Both the position numbers and the translations under genes were made by a program. The notes under the pieces were generated by a model. It had not been told where the DNA came from. It was given only the letters and a program-made list of their open reading frames with translations, and ran no database searches. DNA of 64,000 bases from Candidatus Latescibacterota bacterium (GTDB lineage: Bacteria; Latescibacterota; UBA2968), in assembly GCA_965198115.1 (NCBI GenBank), contig OZ240241.1:864001-928000 (forward strand), written 5' to 3'. Shown piece by piece: positions 29,070-59,695 of this stretch. The number at the start of each line of letters is the position of its first letter. Position 1 is the first letter of the stretch.

Positions 29070-30293
29070 TGACCTGCCCCCATCTATGTGTCCACATCCA
29101 GAGTTAGGATATGGCTGCGGTGAGCGGTTTGGTGACCGCTTCAGGTGCAGGTGGGCGATAGCCCAATGAGCTGTGTGGTCTGATGTGATTGTACTGCCAG
29201 CGCCACCACTTGGTCAACACCCTAGCCTCCTCCAAGGTCGTGAAGATCTCACCGTTGAGTAGCTCGTCTCTGAGCTTCCCGTTGAAGCTCTCGATGTATC
29301 CGTTCTCCCACGGGCTGCCCGGCTCGATGAACAAAGTTCCGACCTCCAACCTCGAGAGCCAGTCCCGAACCGCTTTGGCTACAAACTCCGGCCCGTTATC
29401 CGATCTGATGTGTTTCGGGACACCATACCTCAGCATCAGCTTCGCCAACGTCCGCAGAACGTCCCGTGATGTTTGCTTGCGAGCGACCTCGATGGTCAGG
29501 CACTCACGCGTGTATTCATCCACGACTGTCAGGAACTTCAACGGCCTCCCTTCACGTGTGCGATCGAACACGAAGTCGTAGGCCCAGACGTGGTTACGAT
29601 GCTCGGGTCTGAGTCTGATGCAGGAGCCGTCGTTGAGCCAAAGTCGACCCCGCTTCGGCTGCCTAGCGGGCACCTTCAGCCCCTCCTGACGCCAGATCCG
29701 CTCCACCCGCTTGTGGTTCACCCGCCAGCCATCGGTCCTAAGAAGAGCCGTGATTCGACGGTAGCCATAACGTCCATATTCGCTGGCCAGAGAGACGATG
29801 TTCGCGGTCAGGACGGTCTCGCCGTCCGCCACCTTGAGCGTGTATCGCTGGGTACGGCGCACCTGACCCAGCACACGGCACGCCCGACGCTCCGAGACAG
29901 CCAGGGCCTCACGCACGTGCCCGACCGCCTTCCTTCGCCGCGTCGGGCTCAGAAGTTTCCCCGGGACACCTCCTTGAGAATCGAGATATCCAGGGCCTGG
30001 TCGGCCACAAGACGTTTCAGACGCCCGTTCTCTTGCTCCAGCTCCTTCAGCCGGCGGACCTGGTCGACCTCCATACCGCCGTATTCCTTGCGCCACCGGT
30101 AATAGGTCTGTTCGCTGACGCCAAGCTCACGCGAGACCTCGCCGACCGTCTTGCCTTACGATATACGAATCTCTGCCTGACGGAGATGTCCGATGATCTG
30201 CTCCGCTGTGTATCGCTTCCTGGCCATTCGGCCCCCTTTCTATGTTCCGATATCCTAACTTTAGGAATGGGAACAATCCAGGGGGGCAGGTCA
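29070..30293 (-). mobile_element. IS3-family IS (1224 bp): orfA 29949-30227 with internal TAA, orfB integrase core ending at 29104
   Basis: TG...CA ends (TGACCTGCCCCC), GGGGAAAC frameshift site, WAYDF, SDNGPEF, NGYIESFNG; no TSD. Confidence 0.95.
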
Positions 30294-33200
30294 GAAAGCG
30301 AAGAGGATCTCGACGGCGTCGCGTATGCGCTTTTCGAGGAGTTCGACAACCTTGGATTCGGGCTATACCGGGCGACGACCATCATCGCGGATAGAGAGAC
30401 GATGAAACGGAGAGCGTGGTTTGCCCTAACTGGCTTGGTCGGTGGCGATCTGGATGGGGTGGAAACAGTCTACGCTAACAGATGGGTTGATTTGGCCGCC
30501 ATCGCCGCTTCGAATCCGCCCCAGAAGATTCGGCACGATGCGTGGATAGCTGGTAAAGAACGCTATCAGCGCGAACAGGTCGAGACGGGTCCGTTCCGCG
30601 AGATAGCCGAAGGTGAAGGGTTCAAGAGGGAGCGGCCGGATCTGGTGGCTGCCATCGATTGGGATCGGTTTCCACCCTCCTGGCATCAATGCACGCTCTA
30701 CCACAAGAACGGCTGGCTCACCCTGGTTTCGAAGGAGAAGCTCGACGATGACAACGTAGCGATCGGTCTGCGATTCGCGGATCTGTTCGAATTCGCCTAC
30801 GACCGGTTCAAGGAGCTGGACGCGAAGCAGAAGGCGAATCGCGAGCTGGCCGTCGAGGCGGCGTTGGAGAGGGTGCGAGGGCAAGCATTGGCAATGGAGG
30901 ACGAGGCGCACCTGACCGGCATCTCGCAGGCGATCTTCGAAGAACTGGAGGGCCTAAACTACGATCTCAGACGATCTGTGATCACGATCGGTGCCGGGGA
31001 TTTAGTGAAGAACTGGGCAACTCTCCGCGACGGCGGTGCGGTACGGTCTGGGCACTCGGCACGGCGTCTGGACGGAGGGATGCGGGAGGCAGTACCAGCG
31101 TTGGCGCGGGAGTCCCAACAGCGTCAGAAGGCCCGAGCCGACGGCCAGGCGTATCACGTCCTTGCGCTGACTGAAAGGGAGGCCCGCGACCGGATTGAGG
31201 CTATGAACCGGTTCGATCCGCAGGCCGACAACCTGCCCCAGACATTACCGCAAGGATCCGAACATCACCATAGTCTGTTCATAAGCAAGGGCAACCTGAG
31301 CCTCATTACGGCATCCGCTCTCGACGAGGCGGAGATCGACATCGGGATTCGATTCGCGAAACTGTTCGAGTTCGCTTACGACCGCTTCCTCGAGCTGGAC
31401 GCGAAGCAGAAGGCGAATCACGAGCTGGCCGTCGAGGCGGCACTCGAGCGCGTGCGCGGTCAGGCGCTGGCGATGGAGAGCGAAGAGGATCTCAATGGTG
31501 TCGCCTATGCACTGTTCGAGGAATTCGACGGGCTCGGCTTCGACCTTGTCCGAGCAACAACTGTGGTGTTCGACCTGGGAGAGAAAACCGCCCGTTCGTG
31601 GTCTGCATTTACTGGCTCTGTTGATGAAACCCTTCAGGGTGTAGAATCAGTCTGGGCCCGACCCAAGTACAGCATAGAAGGCTGGTTCTCGGGCGAAGGT
31701 GGTGGTGAAGACCAGGAGCGCTTTGACGCCTGGCAGTCTGGTGAGCGATACCTGCAACAGTTCAGGGATGATGTCTCCGAAATGATTGAGAGTGCCCGGG
31801 AGATCTTGAAGGCCGAGCGTCCGGATCTGGAATCAGCTTACAATTGGGACAATCACCCTCAATCCGAGCATCTCTGCACGCTCTTCAACGCGCACGGTCT
31901 GATCACCATCGTGACCGAAGAGGAGCTGGACGAAGAGATGATCTCCATCGGGCTCCGCTTTTCCGACCTGTTCAGCTTCGCCTACGACCGCTTTAGCGAG
32001 CTGGACGCGAAGCAGAAGGCGAATCGCGAGCTGGCCGTCGAGGCAGCGCTGGAGCGGGTGCGGGGCAAGGCGCTGGCGATGGAGAGCGAGGAGAACCTGA
32101 CCGGAGTTGCGATCTCTATAGCCGAAAGTTGAAGGGGTTGGAGTATCGACCTCAGCGAATCACCCTATCGACACTCAGCCAGGACGAGATGCTCTTGAAT
32201 AACTGCAAGGCACTCGTCGACGGTGAGGCCACCGATCCCAGCGGCGTTCCGATGTTCAGGGTCCCGGTCGACGAGCTCAATCCATCGCTCACGGAATCGT
32301 TGAATGGCGTAAAGCGTGGCGATCGATTCGAGCACTTCGTCTTAGAAGGCGCGGAGCTGGAAGACAGACGGACATGGCGCAGACAGGTCGCACCCGGGAC
32401 GGAAATGGCAGATGGGTCGGAAGCAACCTACGAGGGGATCTTCGGGAGAGAGGTTGATCGTGAGCACCACTACTCGTTTTTCTACCGGAATGGCTGGCTG
32501 AGGCTCGTCAACGAGACAGAAATATCCGAGGAAGAAATCGAGACAGGGATACGCTTCGCCCGGCTGTTCGAATTCGCACACGATCAATTCCGTGAACTTG
32601 AAGCCAAGCAGGTTCGCGCGCGAGAAGCCGAAGTCGAGGCGTCACTCGAGCGCGTCCGGGCGTGGGCGCTGGCGATGGAGAGGGAAGAAGATCTGTCCTC
32701 CGTGGCTGCCAGCATCGGTGAGGAGCTCAAAGGCCTCGACTACAATCCGAATCGTATCAGGATTCAGGTCATCACTGATGACCGGACAGGCATGCGGAGC
32801 TGGAGCGCGCTCTCACCGGGTGGGAGCACGCGGTCAACTGTGCTGGAGGGAGAGCTGCACACCTTCGCGTCTGTACATTCGGAGCTCCGTGGAAACCACG
32901 AGCGTTCCATCGAGCGCCTGGATGCGGGCGATCCGTCGGAGCATTTCCTGATTGCCGGCGAAGAGCTGGAGAGCACGCGTAAGAGGCGGCAGGAGGCCCT
33001 GGGACAGACACCGTATGCTGAGGTATACGGGGACCCGATGGATCAGGAGAATCAATACTCGTTCTTCTTCAAGAACGGCTGGCTGCGGCTCGTCGCTGAA
33101 GACGAGATCTCCGAGGGAGAGGTCGAGACGGGCATCCGCTTCGCGAAGCTGTTCGAGTTCGCCTACGACCGATTTCTGGAGCTGGATGCGAAGCAGAAGG

Positions 33201-36200
33201 CGAACCGCGAGCTGGCCGTCGAGGCGGCGCTCGAGCGGGTGCGCGGTCAGGCACTGGCGATGGAGAGCCAGGACGATCTGAACGGTGTGGCTGACGCGAT
33301 CTTCGCGGAGCTGAGCGGACTCGATTTCGATCTGCACCGGACGGCCGTCACGATCATTCGTTCGGAATCCGATGTCGTGAAGAACTGGCTCGCGAGCGAG
33401 GCGATCGCGGCAGATGACGTCGAGCGGACGATCTACATCGAGCAGCCGAAGGCGGACATCTACAGCGCCGAGACGCAGGGCGTCGAACAGCGCGAGCAGG
33501 AAGAAGCGAAAGCGCGTGGCGAGCATCTCTATCACTTTGCGCTCGACGGCGAGGCGCTTCAGCACCGGTTTGAGGAGCTCGAGTCGATGTGGAACGTCAC
33601 GTTCCGCGAGAAGCCGGCTTCCGAGCATCAGTATCGACTGCTGTTCGACGCCGGTCACCTCTCGATCATCGTCGAGGAAGAGCTCACGGACGAGCAGATC
33701 GACGTGGGTCACCGGTTCGCGCGGCTGTTCGAGTACGCCCACGACCGCTACCTGGAGCTCGTTGCCAAGGACCGTCAGAACCAGGCGCTGCTGCTCGAGG
33801 GTGCGCTCGAACGCGTGAGGTCACGCGCGCTGGCGATGGAAGGGACGGACGAGCTGCACGAGGTGGCGGGGGTCCTGCGCGAAGAGATTCTGCGGCTTGG
33901 GCTGGAACCCCTGAATGTGGAGATCTTCATTCGGGATGAGGCCGACAACATCGGTCGATGTTTCGCCTACAATGAAAGCGGCAAGGCCTATGAAGACGTC
34001 GTTTCGCTCGATGATGCGGTGGAGCAGGCCATTGGCAAGGCCATCGTAGACGCACGTACGGCTGGTGAGCCCTTCTATCACACCACCTTCACGTCGGAGG
34101 ATGACGAAGTTTGGCGTGGCCTTACTGGACGCGCTTACCCAATCCACGAATTGGCGTTGGAATCCGTCCAGGCATACTGGTTCATCTTCCCGCACGGCAG
34201 TCTGACGGTGGCGTTTGAGCTCGAGCAAGATGATTCGGCCATCGGCGCCCTGATCCGCTTCGCGGAGGTGTTCGGGTTCGCCTACGAGCGGTATCAGCAG
34301 CTCGAGCTGAAGGAGCAGCAGAACCGTCAGCTGCGCCTCGATGCCGTGCTCGAACGCATCCACGCGGAAGTTGCGGGCATGACGCAGGCGGAAGACGTGG
34401 GCCAGGTGCTTGGTTTGATCCACGACGGTGCGCGCGAGATGGGCATACCCGATGCGTACATCACGTTCGGTACCCTCATGGACGGTCATCAGATGCTGTA
34501 CCTCCTGTCCGACGACGAGTTTGGCGTCGAACCTTTCCGGCGCTCCATCTATCGTGACCTCCACTTATACCGTTGGGATGATGGGGAGAAGACGCAGGAG
34601 GAATTCGATGCGGGTCGAATTTACGAGATCCGCATTCGCCATCATACCGAAGAGACCCGTCAGAACCTGGCGCGACAGTATACCAGCGGGCAGCGGGACC
34701 TTGCGCCGCGTTCCGCCATGGACGTTCCCCTTTCCTACGGCATGCTCGGGTTCCATTCCATGGAGGCGAACCGCTTCACGTCACCGCAGGAGCAGGAGAT
34801 CGGAAAGGTATTTGCCGAGGTGATGGAGCTCGGATGGGCGCGGTTCCTCGATTTCCGACGACTCGAGGAGCAGAACCGCGCCCTCGAGCAGGCCAACGAG
34901 GAGATCCAGGAAGCGACGCGTCTGAAGTCGCAGTTCCTCGCGACCATGTCTCACGAGTTGCGCACGCCGATGAACGCCATCATCGGGTTCACGCGTCTCG
35001 TACTGCGTCGCGGCGCGGAGAAGCTGGACGATCGTCAGCGTGGTAACCTAGAGAAGGTCGGGGCGAGCGCCAACCACCTGCTCAGCCTGATCAACGATAT
35101 CCTCGATCTGTCGAAAGTCGAAGCCGGTCGCGTCGACATCAGCCCGCATACGTTCGAGTTGAAGCCCGTCATCGAAGACGCCTGCGCCACTGTCGGCCCG
35201 ACCCTCGGCAAGCCGTCCGTCAACCTCGAGTTCGATGTCGAAAGCAGCATCGGCGAGGTCTATACCGATGAGTCCCGATTACGGCAGATCATCATCAACC
35301 TCCTCAGTAACGCATTAAAGTTCACCGACGAAGGATCCGTAAAAGTCACTTCGACGCAGTCGGTTAGTCCGGGGGATTCCCCCGATCTGGTCATATCGGT
35401 TACCGATACGGGCATCGGCATTCCCGAGGATGAGATGGCCAACATCTTCGAAGAATTCCGTCAGGTCGATGGGACGAGCACACGACGCCATCAAGGCACC
35501 GGTCTGGGTCTCGCCATTACCGCAAAATTCGTCGAACTCCTCGGCGGCGAAATCGGGGTCGCCAGCGAAGTAGGCGAGGGATCGATTTTTACGATTCGAA
35601 TACCGTCACGCTATGATCAACCTGTTGCAGGGGAGCAGGGAACAGGGAGCGGTGGGGACGCGTTGACACAGCCGACTGCCGACCTGTCCGCCGAAGCCTT
35701 GGCGGAGGCGGACCGCCCACCGACCGCCGACGGCAAGCGCACCATCGTCTCAATAGATGATGATCCAAACGTAGCCGTCCTGTTGCGACAGGAACTGGAA
35801 GACGATGGTTATTCCGTTATCTCCGCACTCAATGCGGACGAAGGAGTCGCATTGGTCAAGCAGCATCAGCCGATCGCCGTAACCGTCGACATCCTGATGC
35901 CCGGCAAAGACGGCTGGCAAACGATCGCGATGCTGAAGGACGACCCCGACACGCGCGACGTCCCGATCGTGATCGTGTCGGCGATGGACAACCGCGACCT
36001 CGGTTTCAGCCTCGGCGTCCACGACTACGTCGTGAAACCGTTCGATCGCGACGCGTTGATCAACGCGCTCGGCCGGATCGATCACGGCAGTGTCAAGGAC
36101 GTGCTCGTCGTCGATGACGAAGCCGTCGCGTGCGACCTCATCTGCGAGATCCTGGATGACGGTGGCTACACGACACGCCGCGCCCACAATGGACGCGAGG

Positions 36201-36465
36201 CCCTCGATCGCATCCGTGAACAGAAGCCGGACGCCATCTTCCTCGACCTGATGATGCCGGAGATGGATGGCTTCGCCGTCATCGAGGCCCTTCGGAAACG
36301 GATATGGCCTCGATCCCCATCATCGTCGTGACAGCCAAGGACCTCACGCAGGAAGAGGAACAATACCTCGCCGCCCACGTCAATCGGGTGGTGCAAAAGG
36401 GGACGTTGGATCCGGATGATTTGGGGGTGACGTTGAGGGAAGCCCTGTCGAGGTGGGATGGGTGA
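30294..36465 (+). pseudogene. Giant hybrid sensor histidine kinase: 8 tandem GAF-like modules + HisKA + HATPase + 2 REC; 5' end cut by IS3, frameshifts near 32125 and 36300
   Basis: Repeated linker RFAxLFEFAYDRFxELDAKQKANRELAVEAALERVRGQALAME; MSHELRTP, NLLSNALKFT, DTGIGI, GTGLGL; two receiver domains; tail ...EALSRWDG* in a shifted frame. Confidence 0.88.
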
Positions 36466-36496: not shown

Positions 36497-36627
36497 GTAG
36501 GACCAAGCTCTGCTTGGGAAGGCTCCCCTGGTTTGCAAGAGAGCCAGAACCTGGCAATGCTGCTGGCTCTACGGCGGGCAAGATAGGTCAGTGATAGGCC
36601 CGTTCCAAGGCGGGAGCCTGGTCCTAC
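36497..36627. repeat. Inverted GTAG-REP doublet (REPIN-like)
   Basis: GTAGGACCAAGCTCTGCTTGGGAA (36497-36520) and, on the minus strand, GTAGGACCAGGCTCCCGCCTTGGAA (36603-36627), 47 bp upstream of the RAYT ATG. Confidence 0.8.
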
Positions 36628-36719
36628 AGCCTTAGCCAGCTTTGGCAATCAGTTACACCAAACGTCAGGTCATCATGCCAAAGAAGAGATTCAAACATAG
36701 CAATCTGAGAGAGGGCAGG

Positions 36720-38093
36720 GAGCTATAATCAAAAGGTGTGGAAAAAGAGAAAGGGCGACCCTACCCTTCCCGTGAGATAGTTGATTCACACAAAACCGGG
36801 TGAGAGGCCCGGTTGGGAAGGAGGATCGCCGTGAAGGAACATACGCATAGAACCCCATTGAAGTCCATGCCGACGTGGGAGACGGTTGACGATTGGATCC
36901 GTGAAGAGATCCAGAGCCGGTTCCAGTCCATTCTGGAGGAGGAGGCGACCGCGTTCTTGGGCCGGTCGTGGTATGAGCGCCGAGCCGAGGTCGATAGCTC
37001 CACGGGCTACAGGAACGGCTACGGCAAGCCCCGGCGTCTCTCGACGAGCTGCGGAACGATCAAGGTCCGGCGTCCCCGGGTTCGTGGTCTGGAAGAGCGG
37101 TTTGAAAGCCGCATCCTCCCCCTGTTCGCCCGGAGAACCAGGGCCATTGGAGATCTGCTTCCCGACCTTTATCTCCACGGTCTCTCCCAGGGCGACTTCG
37201 AGTTGTCTTTGCGTGCGCTGCTCGGTGATGGCGCGCCGCTTTCGCCGACCTCGATCGCTCGTCTTCGAGGGAAGTGGGAGGTCGACTTCCAGGACTGGAA
37301 AGAAAGGCGTCTGGATAATCGCGAACTGGTCTACGCCTGGGCTGATGGCATCTACGTCAAAGCCGGGCTCGAGCGCGAGAAGGCGTGTCTGCTGGTCGTG
37401 ATCGGCGCGATGAGCGACGGCAGCAAGGAGATCCTGGCGATAGAACCCGGTTATCGAGAGTCTACAGAATCCTGGCTCACGGTGCTCCGGGATCTCCGGG
37501 ATCGCGGGCTCGAACATCCTGTCCTGATCGCCGCGGACGGGAATATGGGCATCTGGGCGGCCGTTGATCAGGTCTGGCCAGAGAGCCGGCAACAACGGTG
37601 CTGGAACCACAAGATCCTCAACGTGCTCGACAAGGTCGCCAAGCGTGCACAGGCTGAAGCCCGCGCACTGCTCGTCCAGATCCCCTATGCCGGCACGAAA
37701 AAGGAGGCCGAGAAGCTCCGGAAACGCTTTGCCGCACGGTATCGCTCACAGTTCCCTGCCGCCGTGGAGACGCTCGAAAGAGACTGGGATCGGATGGTCA
37801 CGTTCTACGACTTCCCGAAGGAACACTGGAAACACCTGAGAACCACGAACGTCGTCGAGAGCCCCTTTGCTTCCGTTCGGCTTCGCACAAACGCCGCCAG
37901 GCGATTCAAGAAAGTCAGGAACGCCACGACTCTCATCTGGCGTACGCTCAAGGTCGCAGAGAGCCGATTCAGGAAACTCACCGCGCCACACTTGCTACAA
38001 CAAGTCTACGATCAGAAACACTCAACCGGACCGCAGGTCGAAGCCGGGAAGATGGCCGCCTGATTTCTTTTACACACCTATTGACCTGAGCTC
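36720..38093 (+). mobile_element. IS256 type A copy 2 (1374 bp; transposase ORF 36813-38063)
   Basis: IRs as above; 8-bp TSD AGGGCAGG (36712-36719, 38094-38101). Confidence 0.96.
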
Positions 38094-38104
38094 AGGGCAG
38101 GTGC

Positions 38105-39481
38105 GAGGTCGAGTCAAGAGGTGTGTAAATAGATCAGGCGGCCAGCTTCTTCCCGGAGTCGATTGTGGTCATAGTTTGGTTGTGCTGTGCATAAACAACG
38201 TGTAACAGATGGGGTGCATTGAGTCGCCGGAAGCGTTTCTCGGCGACCATCAGTGTTCGCCAGATGAGAGCGCTTGCCGCGACGACCTTCTTGTAGCGTT
38301 TGGCGGCGTTGGTTCGTAACCGCACGGATGCAAAGGGGCTCTCGACGATGTTGGTCGTTCTCAGGTGGCGCCAGTGTTCTTCTGGGAAATCGAAGAAGGT
38401 GAGCATCCTATCCCAATCCCGTTCGAGTGTTGCCACCGCCTTCGGGAACTCGTTGCGATATCGTGCGACGAACTGCTTGCGCAGCTTCTCCGCATCCTGA
38501 CGCGTGCTGGCATAGGGAATCTGGACGAGCAGTGCACGAGCTTGAGGCTGCTGACGTTTGTGGATCTGGTCCGGGACGTTGAGAATCTTGTGGTTCCAGC
38601 ACCGCTGCTGACGGGTGTGCGGCCAGACCTGATCGACGGCAGACCAGATGCCCATATTGCCATCGGCCGCCATCAGAATGGGGTGATCCAAGCCGCGATC
38701 CCGTAGGTCTCTAAGGACAGCCAGCCAGGACTCGGTCGACTCGCGATACCCAGGCACCAGGCCCAGAACCTCTTTGCGGCCGTCACTCATGGCGCCGATC
38801 ACGACAAGCAGACACGCCTTATCTTTCTCAAGTCCGGCTTTGACGTAGATCCCATCGGCCCAGGCATACACGAGCTCACGATCGTCCAGGCGTCGTTCCT
38901 GCCAGGTCTGGTAATCAACCTCCCATTGACCGCGGAGGCGAGCAATCGACGAGGGGGAGAGCGGAGCCCCATCACCGAGAAGCCCTCGCAGGGCCAACTC
39001 GAAGTCGCCCTGAGACAGACCGTGGAGATAGAGCTCCGGGAGCAGTTCCCCCACCTCTCTCGTGCGCCGAGCGAACAACGGCAGAATCCTGCTCTCGAAG
39101 CGCTCCTCCAAACCGCGAACACGGGGCCGCTTGATCTGGATCGTGCCGCAAGAGGTCGACAATCGCCGCAGCTTCCCATAGCCGTTGCGATAACCGGATC
39201 CTGCATCTACGGCTTCTTTGCGCTCATACCACCCGCGTCCGAGGAACTGGGTCACTTCCTCCTCAACGATGGACTGAATGCGAACCTCGATTTCCTTACG
39301 CAACCACCCCTCAAGGGTTTCCCACGTCGGCATGGACAACGAGGGGGACTTCGACTTATGTTTTCCCACGGCGATCCTCCTTCCCACCGGGCCTGTGAAC
39401 CCGGTATTTCGTGGATATTGTTATCTCACGGGAAGTGTAGGGTCGCCTTTTCTATTTTTCCACACCTATTGATTGTAGCTC
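38105..39481 (-). mobile_element. IS256 type B, diverged relative (transposase ORF 38134-39387)
   Basis: Related IRs GAGCTACAATCAATAGGTGTGG / GAGGTCGAGTCAAGAGGTGTG; TSD GGCAGGTG (38096-38103, 39482-39489). Confidence 0.94.
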
Positions 39482-39700
39482 GGCAGGTGGTCCCTCAAAG
39501 GCAGTGTCTACTCCATCACCAGCAATGCCTTGGAAGCCTTTCTGGTTGATCCACAGCACCCCCTCGCATCTGAGTGCGCCCCAATCATTGTGGACTCGAT
39601 CAAGTGGCAACACGAGTACGGTCATGTCGATTGCATAGCGTACACGGTGATGCCAGACCACATCCACCTGATCTTCCAGCTTATTGGGGAGAGGTCCCTA

Positions 39701-42248
39701 GTGTCGTGTCCCGCGAATAAGTTTTAGAAGTCTGTTGAGTTTGTCGAGGATCGAGTCAGCGGTTGCCGTCCACACGAAAGGCTTTGAGTTCTGATTGTAT
39801 TGGTCTGTGAACTTCTGGATGCAGGTGATCAGATCCTTGACGTTCCGAAAGGTTCCTCGTCGGATTGCTCTTTGTGTGATGATGCCGAACCAGATCTCTA
39901 CCTGGTTTAGCCAGGAGGCATACGTTGGTGTGTAGTGCACGTGGTATCTTTTACGTGAGGTGAGCCAACGTTTGACGTTCTGGTGCTTGTGAGTGCCGTA
40001 GTTATCGACGACCAGATGGATGTCGAGATCCTTCGGGACGTTTGAGCTCAGGTCAATAGGTGTGTAAAAGAAATCAGGCGGCCATCTTCCCGGCTTCGAC
40101 CTGCGGTCCGGTTGAGTGTTTCTGATCGTAGACTTGTTGTAGCAAGTGTGGCGCGGTGAGTTTCCTGAATCGGCTCTCTGCGACCTTGAGCGTACGCCAG
40201 ATGAGAGTCGTGGCGTTCCTGACTTTCTTGAATCGCCTGGCGGCGTTTGTGCGAAGCCGAACGGAAGCAAAGGGGCTCTCGACGACGTTCGTGGTTCTCA
40301 GGTGTTTCCAGTGTTCCTTCGGGAAGTCGTAGAACGTGACCATCCGATCCCAGTCTCTTTCGAGCGTCTCCACGGCGGCAGGGAACTGTGAGCGATACCG
40401 TGCGGCAAAGCGTTTCCGGAGCTTCTCGGCCTCCTTTTTCGTGCCGGCATAGGGGATCTGGACGAGCAGTGCGCGGGCTTCAGCCTGTGCACGCTTGGCG
40501 ACCTTGTCGAGCACGTTGAGGATCTTGTGGTTCCAGCACCGTTGTTGCCGGCTCTCTGGCCAGACCTGATCAACGGCCGCCCAGATGCCCATATTCCCGT
40601 CCGCGGCGATCAGGACAGGATGTTCGAGCCCGCGATCCCGGAGATCCCGTAGCACCGTGAGCCAGGATTCTGTAGACTCTCGATAACCGGGTTCTATCGC
40701 CAGGATCTCCTTGCTGCCGTCGCTCATCGCGCCGATCACGACCAGCAGACACGCCTTCTCGCGCTCGAGCCCGGCTTTGACGTAGATGCCATCAGCCCAG
40801 GCGTAGACCAGTTCGCGATTATCCAGACGCCTTTCTTTCCAGTCCTGGAAGTCGACCTCCCACTTCCCTCGAAGACGAGCGATCGAGGTCGGCGAAAGCG
40901 GCGCGCCATCACCGAGCAGCGCACGCAAAGACAACTCGAAGTCGCCCTGGGAGAGACCGTGGAGATAAAGGTCGGGAAGCAGATCTCCAATGGCCCTGGT
41001 TCTCCGGGCGAACAGGGGGAGGATGCGGCTTTCAAACCGCTCTTCCAGACCACGAACCCGGGGACGCCGGACCTTGATCGTTCCGCAGCTCGTCGAGAGA
41101 CGCCGGGGCTTGCCGTAGCCGTTCCTGTAGCCCCTGGAGCTATCAACCTCGGCTCGGCGCTCATACCACGACCGGCCCAAGAACGCGGTCGCCTCCTCCT
41201 CCAGAATGGACTGGAACCGGCCCTGGATCTCTTCACGGATCCAATCGTCAACCGTCTCCCACGTCGGCATGGACTTCAATGGGGCTCTATGCGTATGTTC
41301 CTTCACGGCGATCCTCCTTCCCAACCGGGCCTCTCACCCGGTTTTGTGTGAATCAACTATCTCACGGGAAGGGTAGGGTCGCCCTTTCTCTTTTTCCACA
41401 CCTTTTGATTATAGCTCGGACGTTTTTGTCAATGTGCTTGAGGAACTGAAGGAACTCTCTGTTGCGATGTCTGGGCTTGCACTGAGTCAGGACTTTTCCT
41501 GATGCGTTGTTGAGCGCCGCAAAGAGGGTAGTCGTGCCGTGCCGTGTATAGCTGTGAGTGACGCCCTCGACATACCCGAGGCCCAAAGGGAGAATCGGTT
41601 GCGTCCGTTCGAGTGCTTGAATCTGGCTCTTCTCGTCTATGCAGAGCACCATTGCGTTGTCCGGCGGGTTCAGGTATAAACCGACGATATCCCTGACTGT
41701 CTCGACGAAGAAGGGATCGTTCGACAGCTTGAAGTGCTTCTGACGATGCGGCTGCAGTCCAAAGGCTCTCCATACACGTTGCACTGTGGACTTTGAGAGG
41801 CCCGTCTCATCGGCCATCGCTCGACAGGTCCAGTGGGTGGCATTCTTCGGCTTCTTCTTGAGCGTCTTGTAGATGAGTGAGGAGATCTCTTCGTCGCTAA
41901 CGGACCGCGGACCACCAGGACGTAACTCGTCATACAGTCCCATCAAGCCTTGCTCGCAGAAGCGACGGCGCCATTTGCCAACGGACGCTCCGGACAACCC
42001 GACTCGTTCGGCGATCTCCTGATTGGTCAGACCACCATCGCTCAGCAGGACGATCTTCGCCCGACGCACCAGAGCGTGAGGCATGCTGCGCGAACCGGAC
42101 AACGACTGGAGTTGATCGCGGACTTCATCACTGATGTTCAGTGGTTGTAACGGACGACCTCTTGCCATCGGTTCCTCCTCACAATGAGTGCCTGAGGAAC
42201 CTTACGACTGTATCACGAATTTTTCTAGTTATTCCTGAGACGAGACAC
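39701..42248 (-). mobile_element. IS630-family IS (variant A), interrupted by IS256
   Basis: CTAG at both junctions, IRs GTGTCTCGTCTCAGGAATAA / GTGTCGTGTCCCGCGAATAA; transposase from 42168 with CIDEKSQ, VDNYGTHK, SWLNQVEIWF; its stop uses the target TAG. Confidence 0.93.
40044..41417 (-). mobile_element. IS256 type A copy 3 (1374 bp) nested in IS630-A
   Basis: 8-bp TSD GGACGTTT. Confidence 0.96.
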
Positions 42249-42250
42249 TA

Positions 42251-42418
42251 GTGGGCTGTCACGTTAATCGCCCTTTAAAATCGGGAGAGCAGGGTCACTT
42301 CGAGCGGAGTCGAGAAGTCCCTATTCGCGATTCGTAATGGGCGTGTTCTCGACTACGCTCGAACTGACGCCTCTCAGTCTGGCAGCAAAAGTCCAGTACT
42401 ACTTTCGTAACAGGCCAC
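42251..42418. mobile_element. 168-bp non-coding MITE-like element flanked by CTAG
   Basis: Terminal IRs GTGGGCTGTCACG / GTGGCCTGTTACG; internal 23-bp inverted pair at 42294-42316 and 42346-42368. Confidence 0.75.
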
Positions 42419-42420
42419 TA

Positions 42421-44969
42421 GTGTCACGTCCCAGGAATAACTAGAAAAATATTCGATTCTGTCGTATGGTTCCTCAAGCACTCATTCTTGGGAGGAACCG
42501 ATGGCTAGAGGTCGTCCGTTACAGCCACTGAACATCAGTGATGAGGTCCACGATCAACTCGAGTCATTGTCTCGTTCGCGTAGCATGTCTCACGCTTTGG
42601 TGCGTCGCGCGAAGATCGTCTTGATGAGCGATTGCAGTCTGACCAATCAGGAGATCGCGGAACGAGTCGGGTTGTCCGGAGCGTCTGTCGGCAAGTGGCG
42701 TCGTCGCTTCTGCGAGCAAGGCTTGATGGGACTGTATGACGAATTGCGTCCTGGAGGGCCACGGTCGGTCAGCGACGAAGAGATCTCCTCCCTCATCTAC
42801 AAGACGCTCAAGAAGCAACCGAAGGGTGCCACCCACTGGACCTGTCGTTCGATGGCCGACGAGACGGGGCTCTCCAAGTCCTCGGTTCAACGTGTATGGA
42901 AAGCTTTTGGCCTGCAACCGCATCGACAGAAGCACTTCAAACTGTCGAACGATCCCTTCTTCGTCGAGAAAGTCAGGGATATCGTCGGTCTATACCTGAA
43001 CCCACCGGACAACGCGATGGTGCTCTGTGTAGACGAGAAGAGCCAGATTCAAGCACGAGCTATAATCAAAAGGTGTGGAAAAAGAGAAAGGGCGACCCTA
43101 CCCTTCCCGTGAGATAGTTGATTCACACAAAACCGGGTGAGAGGCCCGGTTGGGAAGGAGGATCGCCGTGAAGGAACATACGCATAGAGCCCCATTGAAG
43201 TCCATGCCGACGTGGGAGACGGTTGACGATTGGATCCGTGAAGAGATCCAGGGCCGGTTCCAGTCCATTCTGGAGGAGGAGGCGACCGCGTTCTTGGGCC
43301 GGTCGTGGTATGAGCGCCGAGCCGAGGTTGATAGCTCCAGGGGCTACAGGAACGGCTACGGCAAGCCCCGGCGTCTCTCGACGAGCTGCGGAACGATCAA
43401 GGTCCGGCGTCCCCGGGTTCGTGGTCTGGAAGAGCGGTTTGAAAGCCGCATCCTCCCCCTGTTCGCCCGGAGAACCAGGGCCATTGGAGATCTGCTTCCC
43501 GACCTTTATCTCCACGGTCTCTCCCAGGGCGACTTCGAGTTGTCTTTGCGTGCGCTGCTCGGTGATGGCGCGCCGCTTTCGCCGACCTCGATCGCTCGTC
43601 TTCGAGGGAAGTGGGAGGTCGACTTCCAGGACTGGAAAGAAAGGCGTCTGGATAATCGCGAACTGGTCTACGCCTGGGCTGATGGCATCTACGTCAAAGC
43701 CGGGCTCGAGCGCGAGAAGGCGTGTCTGCTGGTCGTGATCGGCGCGATGAGCGACGGCAGCAAGGAGATCCTGGCGATAGAACCCGGTTATCGAGAGTCT
43801 ACAGAATCCTGGCTCACGGTGCTCCGGGATCTCCGGGATCGCGGGCTCGAACATCCTGTCCTGATCGCCGCGGACGGGAATATGGGCATCTGGGCGGCCG
43901 TTGATCAGGTCTGGCCAGAGAGCCGGCAACAACGGTGCTGGAACCACAAGATCCTCAACGTGCTCGACAAGGTCGCCAAGCGTGCACAGGCTGAAGCCCG
44001 CGCACTGCTCGTCCAGATCCCCTATGCCGGCACGAAAAAGGAGGCCGAGAAGCTCCGGAAACGCTTTGCCGCACGGTATCGCTCACAGTTCCCTGCCGCC
44101 GTGGAGACGCTCGAAAGAGACTGGGATCGGATGGTCACGTTCTACGACTTCCCGAAGGAACACTGGAAACACCTGAGAACCACGAACGTCGTCGAGAGCC
44201 CCTTTGCTTCCGTTCGGCTTCGCACAAACGCCGCCAGGCGATTCAAGAAAGTCAGGAACGCCACGACTCTCATCTGGCGTACGCTCAAGGTCGCAGAGAG
44301 CCGATTCAGGAAACTCACCGCGCCACACTTGCTACAACAAGTCTACGATCAGAAACACTCAACCGGACCGCAGGTCGAAGCCGGGAAGATGGCCGCCTGA
44401 TTTCTTTTACACACCTATTGACCTGAACTCTTCAAGCACTCGAACGGACACAACCGATTCTTCCTTTGGGTCTCGGATACGTCGAGGGCGTCACTCACAG
44501 CTATATCCGGAACGGCACGACCACCCTCTTTGCAGCGCTCAACATCGCATCCGGCAAAGTTCTGACTCAGTGCAAGCCCAGACACCGCAACAAAGAGTTC
44601 CTTCAGTTCCTCAAGCACATCGACAAGAACGTCCCAAAGGATCTCGACATCCATCTGGTCGTCGATAATTACGGCACGCACAAGCACCCGAACGTCAAGC
44701 GTTGGCTCGCCTCACGGAAACGATATCACGTGCACTACACACCAACATATGCCTCCTGGCTGAACCAGGTAGAGATCTGGTTCGGTATCATCACCCAAAG
44801 AGCCATTCGACGAGGCACCTTCAGAAGCGTCAAGGACCTGATCGCCTGCATCAAGAAATTCACTGATCACTACAACGAGAATTCTACACCCTTCGTCTGG
44901 ACCGCCACGGCAGATTCAATCCTCGAGAAAGTCCATAAACTTTTGAAGCTTATACGCGGGACGTGACAC
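42421..44969 (+). mobile_element. IS630-family IS (variant B), interrupted by IS256
   Basis: CTAG junctions, IR GTGTCACGTCCC at both ends; transposase 42501-44966 split at 43057. Confidence 0.93.
43057..44430 (+). mobile_element. IS256 type A copy 4 (1374 bp) nested in IS630-B
   Basis: 9-bp TSD TTCAAGCAC. Confidence 0.96.
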
Positions 44970-45225
44970 TAGATCTGGTTATGCAATCCTTCGGTAGCTT
45001 TACCGCGCTCAGCTGCAACCGATCGCTTGGCAGATCAGGCCAATTCTGGCAAAAGACATACCACGATAGAAAGATCCGATCCGACTCCGAGCTCGAAAAC
45101 CAAATCAACTACATTCTGCAAAACCCTGTCCGAGCGGGCCACGTAACCGAACCTGAAGACTGGCCCTGGAGCGAAGCCTTTCCCAAATGGTCTTCGGTCC
45201 TCGTCAGCCACCACCAGGAGACCCC

Positions 45226-45579
45226 ATGAAACGCATCCTCATCGTAGAAGACCAGGAGTGGAACCGCGATCTGCTCGTCCAGATCCTCGAGGAAGACTAT
45301 GAGGTCCTCGAGGCGGTGGACGGACGGGAAGGGATCGCTAAGGCGAAGGACGAGAAGCCGGATCTGATCCTGACCGACATGCTGATGCCCGAAGGCATCG
45401 AGCTGGCGGAAACGCTTCGGAAACATCCGGATACGGCGGACACGGCGATCATCGCGGTCACCGCTCAGGCGATGGCTGGGGACGCCGAAAACGCCATCGC
45501 CGCCGGCTGCAACGACTACGTCAGCAAGCCGATCGACGAAGACCTGCTGATGGAAAAGATCGAGAAATACCTGGCCTGA
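45226..45579 (+). CDS. Single-domain response regulator (DivK/CheY-like)
   Basis: ILIVED, DLILTDMLMP, VTAQA, YVSKP; ATG overlaps the RAYT stop (ATGA), SD CAGGAG. Confidence 0.9.
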   Translation: MKRILIVEDQEWNRDLLVQILEEDYEVLEAVDGREGIAKAKDEKPDLILTDMLMPEGIELAETLRKHPDTADTAIIAVTAQAMAGDAENAIAAGCNDYVSKPIDEDLLMEKIEKYLA

Positions 45580-45731
45580 TCTGTCGCCGGTAAGGGCGGA
45601 CCCGCGCCTGCCCTGAGCGGCAGTCGAAGGGTGTCCGGCCCGATGGCATCTTGCCATAACCGACACTTCGACTCGCGCTCAGTGTGACGGTGTCTCTGCC
45701 GAACACCGAACACTGGATCCTGGACACTGCC

Positions 45732-47044: not shown

Positions 47045-47276
47045 GTGGGACCGGTCTCCAGACCGGGAAAAGACCTGTCACGCGAAGCAACAGCGTCCAA
47101 CGTTTGTGCGCATACGTCCACATAAGCGCCCAAGCGTGACATCCCAACGGCCTGGGATTTTCGTAGAACGCAGCAATGGTATCGCGCGTCGATGGCCGGT
47201 GAGGGCCATATTGCCGGCCACACAGTCGGCTCAACATAGTGCAACGGGCCGTTCCCTGTCTGGAGACAGGTCCCAC
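47045..47276. repeat. Inverted GTGG-REP doublet (REPIN-like)
   Basis: GTGGGACCGGTCTCCAGACCGGGA and, on the minus strand, GTGGGACCTGTCTCCAGACAGGGA. Confidence 0.75.
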
Positions 47277-56524: not shown

Positions 56525-56585
56525 TGGGTTTATCTGAAGCGTGCACGGGGTTGAGAAGGATGGAAACCGTGAAGCGAGGTCAGGG

Positions 56586-59500
56586 ATGAAGATCATCGAC
56601 GTTTCGATTCGACGCCCGACGTCCATCATTGTGGCGGTGCTGCTGGCGGTCATCTTCGGCGCCCTGTCGCTGAGCAAGATGCCGATCCAGATGCGCCCAA
56701 CGGTCGACCGTCCTCGGATATCGGTCCGCGTGGAATACCCGGGCGTTGCCCCTCCTGAGATCGAGGAACAGGTGACGATTCCGATGGAGCAGCGGTTGAA
56801 CACCGTTCAGAACCTGACCAAGATCAGATCTCGGTCTCAGACGGGCCAGAGCAGGATCTGGCTCGAGTTCGACTGGGGTGTGAACAAAGACCTAGCGGGA
56901 CTGGATGTCTTGAAGAAGATCAATCAGGTCCGGAACCTGCCCGTTGACGCGGAGGCGCCCACGATAACGGCGGCCTCATCCGATGAGCGTCCTGTGAGCT
57001 ATATCGCCATTCGGAGCGAGACGGTCGGTGTCGATAAGCTGTTCGAGGTGACGGAAGACATGATCGCCCCCATGGTCGAACGGGTGGAAGGCGTTGGGTT
57101 GATTCGGATTTACGGAGGTCGAGAGCGGGAGATCCAGGTCATCCTGGACTACGAGGCGATGACGTCGCGTGGTCTGTCCATCGACCGAGTGCGTGCCGCA
57201 ATCGGAAACGAGAACCGAAATGCACGGGGCGGTCACATCGACGAAGGAAAACGACGGGTGATGGTACGCACCTTGGGTCAGTTCGACCGTCTGTCGGATC
57301 TCGAAAATGTGATCGTGGATCAGACTAGAACCGGGCCCGTTTACTTGAAAGACATCGCCCGGATTGAAGACAGCTTCAAAGACCTGCGTTACACCGTGCG
57401 TGAGACGGGCGATCCCGCGGTCGTGATGGCGATTATCAAGCGGAGCGGTGCGAACACGATCAAGACAATGGCGGGTGTGGATGCAACGCTCGAAAGCTTG
57501 CGAGAGGAACTGGGACTCAAGGACATTCAGATCGTCAAGTCGATCGATGAAACGGACTACATCTGGGACTCGATCGACCAGGTCGTGTCAAACCTGGAGA
57601 TCGGCGGGATTCTGGCGCGTGGTGCTCCTGTTGTTCCTCCGCAATTTCGTGAGTACGGCGATCGTTACGCTCGCGATTCCGATTTCGCTCGTCGCGTCGT
57701 TCATCTTTTTGAACGGGGTCGGTTCGTCGCTGAACATCATCACGCTGGCTGGTTTGGCGTTCGCAGTCGGGATGGTGGTCGACAACGCCATTGTCGTGCT
57801 CGAAAACATCTACCGTCACGCAGAGATGGGGCAGAAAAGAGGAGAGGCGTCGTTCAACGGGGCCGAGCAGGTGTGGGGTGCCATCCTGGCGTCGACACTG
57901 ACGACTCTCGCCGTGTTCCTTCCCATCATCTTCGTGAAAGAGGAAGTGGGACAGTTGTTTCGAGACATCGCGCTGGCGATCGCCTTTGCGATCGTCATGT
58001 CCCTCGTCATATCCATCACGCTGATTCCCATGCTCGCGTCCAAGTGGATGGGCACGGTGAAGAAGCAGGGGAAGGAGGAACGACGCCTGTGGGTTGAAGC
58101 GCTGACCTTCGGGTGGATAGGAAGGTCGGTGAATCGATTCTTCCTGGGGTCGGTCGCGTGGCTGCTGAGGGGCTTCGGAAGGAAAATCGTGTTTGTCGTG
58201 TTGATCTTGGGTCTGTTCTCGGCAAGTCTCGTGCTGCTCCCCCCAGCCGAATATCTGCCGATCGGGAGCATGAACACGATTCGTGGAAACATGCGCCTCC
58301 CGCCCGGGAGCAACGTCGACCAGGCCGGCTACTTGATGGGGCAGGTCGAATCGCGATTCTTGGCGATCGAGGAGATGAAGAACCTTTTCGTCGTTTCGGG
58401 TCTGTTCAACATTGTTTTTCTTGTGTGTAAGGACGAGTACAAGGCTAACCTGAGGCCGGTGATCGATAAGATGCGCGATCTCGTGAAGGATATTCCGGGA
58501 GTCCGGCTCGGGATCGCCCAGATGGGTATCTTCAGCCGGAACAACGCGGGAAAAACGATCACGCTCAGGGTTCGGGGAAAAGATCTCGCGGGAATCCACA
58601 AGCACGTGACCTTCCTGGAAGAAAAACTCATCGGCATCGAGGGTGTGATCGATGCGAGAACGAGTCTGGATGTTCGCAATCCGGAGTACCGGGTCAGGAT
58701 CGATCGAGAGCGAGCCGCGCGTCTCGGACTGTCAAATCGCTCGATTGCGGAGGCAATCGAGACACTCGTCGGCGGCAAGGTCGTCTCGCTCTATCGGAGC
58801 GAGGGCGACGAGGTGGACATCACCCTGCGCGGCGACCCCGAGAAATTCGATGACGTGGAGAACATCCGCGAGATACTCGTCTACACACCAGCGGGCACGC
58901 CGGTGCGGCTGGGCAGTCTGATCGACGTGAGCGAAGGGCTCGGGCCGACACGGATCGAGCACCACAACATGGATCGTGTGATTTCCGTGACGGCCACCCT
59001 CCAGGAGGAGATTCCTATGGAGGTGATGCTCGACCGTATCAAGGAGGCCGCGGTGGGCCCGCTCGAGGCGTCGCTGCCGCTCGGGTATGCGGTCGACATG
59101 GGGACCACGGCCAACAAGCTTGAGCGCACCAAAGAGGCGCTAGGAAGCGCTTTTCTTCTCGCGGTGGTCATCATCTATCTGCTGATGGCGTCGCTGTTCG
59201 AATCCTTCCGGTATCCTTTGATCATACTGTTTTCCGTGCCCCTCGCGATGACGGGCGCCATCCTCGGCATCATCGCGACAGGGTCGGAATTCAACGTGAT
59301 CACGATGTTGGGCTTCATCATCCTGAGCGGTATCGTCGTCAACAATGCCATCTTGCTGATCCACCAGGCGCTTCGCGCCCAACGGGTTGAAGGTTTGGGA
59401 TACAATGAGGCGATCCAGCAAAGCTGTCGTACAAGGATGAGACCCATTTTCATGAGCACGATGACGAGTGTGCTCGGCATGATGCCACTGGCGATGGGGT

Positions 59501-59695
59501 CGGGCCGGGAGCGAGCTTTACAGCGGCCTGGGCGCGGCCATCGTCGGTGGGCTGATGGTTTCGACGCTGTTCACGCTGATCCTCGTGCCCGTGCTGTTTT
59601 CGCTGTTCAATGATGTGGGCAGGTGGATGTCCAGGCTGATGGGTCGCGAAGACGACGTGGAGGTCGCTGTATCGGTCAGGGCAGCAGGAGATTGA
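56586..59695 (+). pseudogene. RND (AcrB/MdtC-type) permease with frameshifts near 57615 and 59505
   Basis: SIRRP, YPGVAP.EIE, GMVVDNAIVVLENI, GIVVNNAIL, RMRPIFMS; continuous across three frames. Confidence 0.88.

Follow-up and report, generated by a model that had tools for sequence, protein, structure and literature searches.

Within the 64,000-nucleotide window (the whole stretch analysed, positions 864,001 to 928,000 of contig OZ240241.1 from a Candidatus Latescibacterota bacterium), a small REP-associated transposase-like (RAYT) gene of the HUH/Tyr type lies in three separate pieces, interrupted by a stack of seven mobile elements. The stack contains four IS256, two IS630, and one MITE, with one IS256 inside each IS630, which is the inventory listed in the initial annotation, and the gene itself has three insertion points. 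The features, in window coordinates, are as follows.

36497..36522, forward strand: REP-like hairpin headed by GTAG, forming the left half of an inverted doublet that lies upstream of the RAYT gene
36600..36627, reverse strand: REP-like imperfect hairpin headed by GTAG, forming the doublet's right half
36675..36719, forward strand: RAYT piece A, codons 1–15, its last bases being the first IS256 target copy; 10/15 residues match the homologue P0001
36720..38093, forward strand: IS256a, 1,374 bp, 8-bp target-site duplication (TSD) AGGGCAGG; NF033543 295 bits, cut-off 150
38094..38104, forward strand: RAYT-derived 11-bp spacer, two overlapping target copies, read directly
38105..39481, reverse strand: IS256b, 1,377 bp; NF033543 292 bits; 7 full copies in the genome
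39488..39700, forward strand: RAYT piece B, carrying the HUH motif, its 3' limit being the TA of the CTAG target; NF047646 positions 6–65, E 6e-7
39701..44969, no strand assigned: putative composite block IS630a-MITE-IS630b::IS256a, with an IS630 right end at either limit and a TA duplication around it; its twin lies at G000 6244536-6248422 (G000 being this genome)
39701..42248, reverse strand: IS630a, 1,166 bp, interrupted; 362-aa transposase; NF033545 179 bits, cut-off 100
40044..41417, reverse strand: IS256a copy within IS630a at element position 824-831, 8-bp TSD; missing from the twin block
42251..42418, forward strand: MITE-like element, 168 bp, with 13-bp terminal repeats (11/13 match), TA flanks, and an internal hairpin repeat
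42421..44969, forward strand: IS630b, 1,166 bp, interrupted; 360-aa transposase; 88% nucleotide identity to IS630a
43057..44430, forward strand: IS256a copy within IS630b at position 628-636, 9-bp TSD
44972..45229, forward strand: RAYT piece C, which carries the YxxxNP motif of the catalytic Tyr; NF047646 positions 85–146, E 2e-17

The RAYT gene begins with the ATG at 36675, and its pieces of 45, 213, and 258 nt are all open in frame 0. When joined by script, they yield 516 nt and 171 aa with no internal stop, in exact agreement with the coordinates and the product of ~171 aa proposed earlier from the sequence. The motifs then named are all found in the joined product, LRxGRxS as LREGRWS (spanning junction 1), MPDHIH, WQxxYHDRxIR as WQKTYHDRKIR, YIxxNPVRAG as YILQNPVRAG, and WPWS. 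Aligned with P0001, an intact natural protein of 172 aa, the product shows 72% identity (124/172 columns, one gap), with 50/71 identical residues in piece B and 63/85 in piece C. An HMM made from 111 natural homologues (training range 134–228 bits) gives the joined protein 206 bits and P0001 207 bits; the best of three shuffled versions of the joined protein reaches 0.9 bits and one gives no hit, so the match is not due to chance. Scanned singly with the NCBIfam RAYT model NF047646 (cut-off 80 bits), two of the pieces align with colinear stretches of it at 29.5 and 63.6 bits, and P0001 passes with 111.1 bits. With Pfam Y1_Tnp (cut-off 23), piece B alone scores 15.7 bits, piece C alone gives no hit, and P0001 scores 35.7 bits; P0001 also matches 4ER8 (E 8.5e-7). 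The full-length match to natural homologues supports membership of the RAYT/TnpA-REP family, as first suggested by the motifs. In addition, the joined protein carries the HUH of MPDHIH, the Tyr of YILQNPVRAG, and the N-terminal Thr column of TnpA-Y1 class 2, resembling in its HUH, YxxxNP, NPVRxG, and N-terminal Thr the TnpA-REP/RAYT proteins as outlined by Quentin et al. (bioRxiv 10.1101/279083) and Nunvar et al.

Like the TnpA-REP/RAYT systems outlined in those sources, the gene is single copy and has a GT(A/G)G-headed hairpin nearby, with GA after the head. Unlike them, it has a REP doublet only upstream, a stop codon overlapping the next gene, and a small cognate REP family, and it is broken. 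The REPtron, as summarised in Nunvar 2010, is a vertically inherited, single-copy RAYT flanked on both sides by inverted REPs, with REP-dependent cleavage of ssDNA and the cognate REP in tens to hundreds of exact copies. Here, a search for GT[AG]GGA hairpins downstream finds the nearest at 47045, 1.8 kb off, so that no hairpin of this head type flanks the gene on that side, and the genome holds two exact copies of the left hairpin (the other at G000 4353768) and 21 GTRGGACC-hairpin sites rather than tens to hundreds of exact copies. The whole doublet has a 72%-identical counterpart at G000 5283581-5283714 and folds modestly better than its shuffles (z -1.9). Because the REPs are upstream only and low in copy number, the product is described as a RAYT-family protein rather than as part of a full REPtron. 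The stop codon in piece C overlaps the ATG of the next gene, a response regulator; the C-terminal tail that makes this overlap here is also present in the homologues P0001 and P0010, which suggests that these stand at the same locus.

The elements of the stack are ordinary members of their families. The IS256 elements score above the NF033543 cut-off and possess terminal inverted repeats, TSDs, and multiple copies. IS256a has 128 full-length copies of at least 99.27% identity in the genome, 94 of them with an exact 8- or 9-bp TSD, and IS256b is 75% identical to IS256a at the nucleotide level. The duplication around IS256b reads either as 8 bp plus one extra base or as 9 bp with one mismatch; both join in frame, and the natural homologue has W at this junction, the residue given by the initial annotation's join. 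The two IS630 score above the NF033545 cut-off and prefer CTAG, with TA flanks in 25/25 uninterrupted copies. The MITE is of the IS630 type, being short, non-coding, bounded by terminal inverted repeats and TA, and dispersed with differing flanks; ends resembling its own occur at other places in the genome, and an Rfam search with it gave 0 matches. As a small correction to the earlier reading of a repeated CTAG, the IS630 duplication is TA, and CTAG is regenerated because the elements start with G and finish with C. Set against family models rather than ISfinder names, these elements share with the IS256 (NF033543) and IS630 (NF033545; ISY100 mechanism, as outlined in PMC2170065) families their transposase models, terminal inverted repeats, and 8-9-bp or TA duplications, and show no fundamental difference from them.

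The gene was likely intact until recently, as was proposed at the outset, because it has no stop or frameshift and keeps 24/26 well-conserved columns, as many as the intact homologue keeps. No intact allele exists elsewhere in the same genome. Related genomes had been named as the place to look for an uninterrupted allele; among 60 relatives none was found, with RAYT-like matches in 23/60, all at most 52% identical, and the genus of this organism contributes one other genome. A homology search of genome contigs gave 8 loci, all distant rather than close, and the metagenome contigs gave 2 matches at 36%. The kinase gene upstream is frameshifted near 36300 (where a Logan unitig agrees base for base) and near 32100, and is also cut by an IS3-type element; the signalling genes adjoining the RAYT gene are likewise broken. 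For this kinase, no orthologous locus was found in 5 family genomes, with weak matches only in G001.

The reads, available as contigs and unitigs from two runs of one sample (probably the source sample), in which depth does not equal copy number, bear on the possibility that repeats were mis-joined to produce the stack or its twin. The block consists of 8.3 kb of repeats present in 7-155 copies each, no Logan contig of the two runs spans it, and the flank unitigs enter the ISs by 27-28 bases only, less than the tool's 31-base bridging rule. Against such an artefact, target duplications that match one another link piece A with the spacer and the spacer with piece B, the RAYT pieces are colinear with the natural protein at both junctions, and both MITE joints are represented by junction unitigs at roughly twice the unique depth (23/15 and 22/15 vs 9-10/6-9 for the unique flanks); a misassembly is thus very improbable. 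No joint skipping to the empty RAYT site occurs in these contigs, which drop rare variants. Meanwhile, the deep joint 43047-44431 corresponds to other IS630b copies without IS256.

A block of four of these seven elements is duplicated elsewhere, and this observation, together with the three insertion points in the gene, does not support the view of seven separate insertions as first worded. The twin block, 5.3 Mb away, comprises 3,891 bp with 6 differences, the extra IS256 inside IS630a set aside. It sits at another CTAG in an unrelated gene, with equal order and orientations, differing flanking genes, and TA/CTAG at each site. Among 13 related sequences in the MITE alignment, 100% identity occurs only between the stack copy and the twin copy, and five other close copies are 92-94% identical to the stack MITE. 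The doubled depth of the junction unitigs at the MITE joints points weakly the same way. Both outer ends of the block are IS630 right ends, so that neither a single IS630 nor gene conversion of one can explain it. Two IS ends bounding a passenger, an outer target duplication, and more than one target are all present, and the four-element block likely moved as one composite transposon, judging from these sequence relationships. The differences between block and twin (three sites in IS630a, one in IS630b, and two in IS256a) include 4 polymorphisms common to other copies, which would require gene conversion or consensus mixing and count against the composite view.

The direction of movement can be weighed from the two host genes. 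The gene holding the twin at 6.24 Mb, reconstructed as an empty site, carries a TAG in frame in place of the CAG of the relative G035; it was therefore likely already dead when the block came in, and is the more probable long-term residence. With the 3.9-kb block likely having arrived at (or left) the RAYT gene as one composite, we somewhat favour the RAYT gene as its recipient. Alternatively, the seven elements may have arrived singly at the RAYT gene, the four-element block being copied later to 6.24 Mb, which is possible but less probable. The sequence differences between block and twin give no copying direction, which leaves room for this order of events, and IS630 ends stack at regenerated CTAG, so the array could form here. 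This stepwise order sits poorly with the twin's host gene as the likelier long-term home and with the presence of IS630b::IS256a, identical in site and orientation, at both G000 4.66 Mb and 6.245 Mb, the former a third site. Moreover, six distinct close MITE copies are 89-97% identical among themselves vs >99% for the ISs, so the MITE family predates the IS burst, a poor fit with a fresh solo insertion into an undecayed gene. The IS256a haplotypes, 92 among 128 copies and mosaic, reveal neither event order nor direction.

Returning to the composite, the IS630a/b ends are followed by TAG in 68/80 cases and abut another IS630-type or MITE end in 20/80. Nested IS256a copies lie in IS630a/b in 12/36 cases, IS630a/b making up 47 kb of ~1.1 Mb of IS DNA, and the site struck by IS256a in IS630a has a homologous site also struck in 2 IS630b copies. 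It is marginally favoured that the block is a natural IS630 composite with two different arms and a MITE-only cargo, which would have self-assembled via CTAG regeneration, gained IS256 at a recurrent site, and moved as a unit. The disabled arm and the IS256 would then be passengers, and IS630 would serve IS256 in this genome both as a landing pad and as a vehicle. Apart from the duplicated natural IS630 composite, which is unusual, all parts are ordinary. An IS630-associated composite transposing to the TA in CTAG was reportedly described by Tenzen and Ohtsubo in 1991. Tn630-NC1 of Nitrosomonas communis, presented in PMC11544213 (2024) as the first natural IS630 composite and as inactive, likewise has two inverted IS630, outward transposases, a TA duplication, and a CTAG target. 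Compared with Tn630-NC1 as that report describes it, the two arms here are distinct elements, a 168-bp MITE takes the place of genes as cargo, an IS256 sits in one of the arms, and the block lies at two different targets rather than being one inactive element. If real, the composite would provide rare direct sequence evidence of such composites moving in nature.

The genome as a whole consists of 13% IS (~970 IS pieces). Its 674 IS blocks divide into 486/120/42/14/10/2 for 1-6 elements, so the RAYT stack is joint-largest (2 of 674) on a continuous size tail, and 16 places, the RAYT gene included, have at least 3 insertion points within 516 bp of non-library DNA. The notion of a special IS sink is not upheld by these distributions. 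A random-insertion null with 30% tolerant DNA, a value fitted rather than measured, gives 511/129/39/13/4/1 for 1-6 elements and a block of at least 6 in 35/40 runs, compared with a 6-block in 4/40 runs at 100% and 13/40 at 50% tolerance. It roughly reproduces the stack-size tail, although it under-predicts 5-blocks (4 vs 10 observed). The triple-hit spots simulated at 30% average 7.6 (95% range 2-13), and the observed 16 lie above this range, indicating clustering stronger than the null; IS left unannotated in the 'backbone' may have raised this count.

Another reading is that ISs are drawn to the RAYT gene or to the REP hairpins upstream of it, or that RAYT loss is favoured in an IS burst, which we regard as unlikely. 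The stack is, besides joint-largest, the second-longest multi-copy block of 688, and two different IS256 occupy overlapping targets; only 8/128 IS256a have another IS end 30 bp away or less. Nevertheless, a second RAYT-like ORF in the same genome (G000 3908052-3908495) is uninterrupted, the REP doublet itself has no insertions, no clear IS256a target consensus appears across 75 sites, fifteen further spots have at least 3 insertion points, and repeat hits on a dead gene would add nothing.

Overall, the probable explanation is that a single-copy RAYT gene was broken at three points, likely recently, in what was likely a neutral accumulation of insertions while ISs were bursting across the genome, and that the composite block likely arrived (or left) as one transposon. 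A first hit would have inactivated a dispensable gene within an already decaying two-component-signalling region, and later insertions into the dead gene would have cost nothing. Two IS256 would have entered overlapping targets, the duplications fitting either order, and the composite would have entered the gene's native CTAG, mobilised by IS630 transposase working at its outer pair of right ends. A further IS256a would have entered IS630a, at the site independently struck in IS630b. The block itself was likely built via target regeneration, with every IS630-type insertion leaving CTAG at both ends. The events at the RAYT gene would thus number a minimum of four if the gene is the recipient and could reach seven if the block was put together at this site; element counts overstate the event number.

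Deletion or loss of RAYT without obvious growth effect has been reported (bioRxiv 2021.07.10.451892, as summarised there). The literature search for IS-disrupted RAYTs gave only Quentin et al., which is not proof of absence. In laboratory IS bursts, according to the account in PMC12065110, IS-in-IS insertion occurs at the expected rate and new composites arise. The present case resembles that expansion in IS-in-IS insertion without target immunity and in transposing sub-blocks of nested arrays, and differs in being natural, in involving multiple IS families, and in having IS256a at recurring IS630 positions. The locus is of modest worth as a clean example of an IS burst burying a small gene, with RAYT loss captured near its moment of occurrence, and requires no new enzyme or mechanism. 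The gene was expected to escape an ORF caller entirely; this is not quite so, since its last piece is publicly deposited as an 88-aa ORF (P0005), with the start codon within the IS630b end.

The RAYT (REP-associated HUH/Tyr transposase-like) gene is divided into three pieces by a stack of elements, whose boundaries were set from the ends of genome-wide BLAST matches and by direct reading.

36675–36719, RAYT piece A
36720–38093, IS256a; transposase family model above cut-off
38105–39481, IS256b; transposase family model above cut-off
39488–39700, RAYT piece B
39701–42248, IS630a; transposase family model above cut-off
40044–41417, further IS256a copy
42251–42418, MITE
42421–44969, IS630b; transposase family model above cut-off
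43057–44430, further IS256a copy
44972–45229, RAYT piece C

Direct reading finds the three pieces at the coordinates proposed in the initial annotation, each open in frame, and a scripted join bears out their in-frame continuity, with 171 codons and 0 stops. The RAYT-model search proposed there, run on the pieces, gave colinear matches to the NCBIfam RAYT model NF047646 (piece B, 29.5 bits, positions 6–65; piece C, 63.6 bits, positions 85–146), each below the 80-bit cut-off, while piece B matches Pfam Y1_Tnp weakly. With piece C as the query against longer proteins, one of eight candidates matched, namely P0001, an uninterrupted natural homologue of 172 aa. It is colinear with the joined protein across both junctions, with 124 of 172 columns identical and a single gap near the C-terminus. 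Furthermore, an HMM was built from 111 of the best 150 relatives (length filter 140–230 aa), leaving out P0001 (the query) and P0005, the public ORF of the genome's own piece C. The joined protein scores 206 bits versus 207 bits for P0001, and both retain 24 of the 26 columns whose conservation reaches at least 70%. The RAYT gene under the insertions is genuine, with no sign of decay. A second, uninterrupted RAYT-like ORF exists elsewhere in the genome; low copy number is typical of RAYTs (PMC5581495), and their loss without obvious cost is on record (bioRxiv 2021.07.10.451892).

Uninterrupted full-length copies of IS256a, IS256b, IS630a and IS630b number 128, 7, 4 and 21 in the genome, and identity within each family exceeds 99.2%, a likeness probably reflecting a recent burst. 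The target sites of the two IS256 elements in the RAYT gene overlap, and their duplications fit either arrival order. Genome-wide, 34 of the 128 IS256a copies lack an exact 8–9-bp TSD, and flanks are apparently exchanged among several copies (e.g., 632179 and 1447128), suggesting IS-mediated rearrangements. The IS630 copy at genome positions 3785128–3787676 combines b and a sequence in a mosaic, with 19 differences from IS630b in its right part. Inside the MITE (42287–42375) is a hairpin repeat, solitary copies of which lie at dozens of sites; in four MITE copies, this repeat harbors an additional 23-nt hairpin.

The block IS630a–MITE–IS630b::IS256a, with IS630 right ends at both outer edges, recurs at genome positions 6244536–6248422 (3,891 bp, 6 differences), where it interrupts another gene, presumably for a sugar-phosphate-isomerase-like protein from reading by eye, again at CTAG. 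Among 13 aligned MITE-related sequences, identity exists only between the stack and twin MITEs; five other close copies are 92–94% identical to this pair. Unitigs across both MITE junctions have approximately twice the depth of the unique flanks, which lends slight support to two block copies, as the two read runs share a single sample (probably the source) and depth in contigs does not measure copy number. The block appears to have moved by transposition as a composite. However, four of the six differences are polymorphisms common to other copies, which require gene conversion or consensus mixing and count against simple composite transposition; IS256a haplotypes are mosaic across the genome. 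The empty-site reconstruction of the twin's host gene gives TAG, versus CAG in one relative, and the MITE family is older than the IS burst; hence, the RAYT gene is somewhat favored as the recipient of the block rather than its donor. As recipient, it would have undergone four events: two IS256 insertions, the composite, and one more IS256a. The seven stacked insertions first proposed thus stand as seven elements, but the events are probably fewer, as a block of four recurs elsewhere.

An IS630 composite reportedly transposes, directed to CTAG, judging from the title of an earlier paper. A natural IS630 composite was presented in 2024 as the first example (PMC11544213), and laboratory IS bursts yield nested ISs and new composites (PMC12065110). 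The stacked RAYT locus is a real finding built of known parts, of which only the duplicated IS630 composite with its two arms might catch a specialist's eye.

A census with a home-made library of 18 families, with low-copy families omitted and some split halves unmerged, gives approximately 970 ISs or pieces of them, covering 13% of the 8.43-Mb genome, in 486, 120, 42, 14, 10 and 2 blocks of one to six elements, respectively. The RAYT stack is one of the two largest. Under random sequential insertion (40 runs per tolerant fraction of non-IS DNA), a six-element block arises in 4, 13, 35 and 40 runs at 100%, 50%, 30% and 20% tolerant DNA; the 30% fraction roughly fits the whole block-size distribution, with too few five-element blocks. 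Sixteen places with at least three insertion points per 516 bp exceed this null even at 30% tolerance. The clustering of ISs is thus a genuine, general feature rather than one peculiar to the RAYT gene, and the suggestion of an IS sink there is not supported. The IS content of the window is 22.5%, equaled or exceeded in 11 of 131 genome windows. The longest multi-copy block (genome positions 1808094–1819140) is 11 kb in length and includes six or more IS pieces.

TAG follows 68 of 80 IS630a/b ends, and another IS630-type or MITE end adjoins 20 of the 80. Every IS630 insertion rebuilds CTAG, which is approximately 3.4-fold rarer than expected in the genome; the family is known to duplicate TA and to transpose by cut-and-paste (PMC2170065). 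IS630a/b host 12 of the 36 IS256a copies that lie within another IS, versus 1 in the much larger library family F0, a bias that differences in family age, the copying of compound elements or a genuine preference could each explain. Three IS630 copies are hit at element positions 628–636 and three at 824–831; the duplications at the latter site are a-type in IS630a and b-type in IS630b, indicating at least two independent insertions. Other library families form recurring pairs with identical junctions (F3–F0, 9 and 8 times; F7–F12, 4 times), which would reflect either the targeting of IS ends or additional composites.

An inverted doublet of GTAG-headed hairpins is located 48 bp upstream of the RAYT gene, its relatives in the genome being one doublet (72% identical) and a few single hairpins. 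Directly downstream, no GTAG-type hairpin was found; there, the RAYT stop codon shares bases with the ATG of a response regulator gene. PMC2817692 defines a REPtron by REPs on two sides and high copy number, and the RAYT locus falls outside that definition. The product is class 2 by the criteria in bioRxiv 279083. Given the upstream-only doublet with few relatives, the locus is assigned to the RAYT protein family, not to a demonstrated REPtron. Other palindromic repeats are a multi-copy repeat at 45600–45690, with its end near 45690, and a GTGG-headed inverted doublet at 47045–47276.

Upstream, a large sensor-kinase gene (29104–36465) is interrupted by an IS3-type element and carries two frameshifts, near 32100 and near 36300, the latter agreeing base for base with a unitig. 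It contains at least seven repeats of approximately 195 aa, which have no Pfam match. In the assembly sequence, a frameshift near 57600 splits an AcrB-family efflux gene (56541–59613).

In five relatives' genomes, RAYT-like Y1 domains occur within open frames of 1,200–1,440 aa, possibly as in-frame HUH-domain insertions into defence genes.

L119:1498–5817 (G032), long frame with Y1 domain
L118 (G049), long frame with Y1 domain
L120 (G031), long frame with Y1 domain
G048 and G054, matches

The G032 protein combines DUF1156, an adenine methyltransferase and two Y1_Tnp stretches, and the library protein P0113 is a comparable Eco57I/MmeI methylase–Y1 fusion. P0090 and P0132 are ferredoxin–Y1 and FabA–Y1 fusions, respectively.
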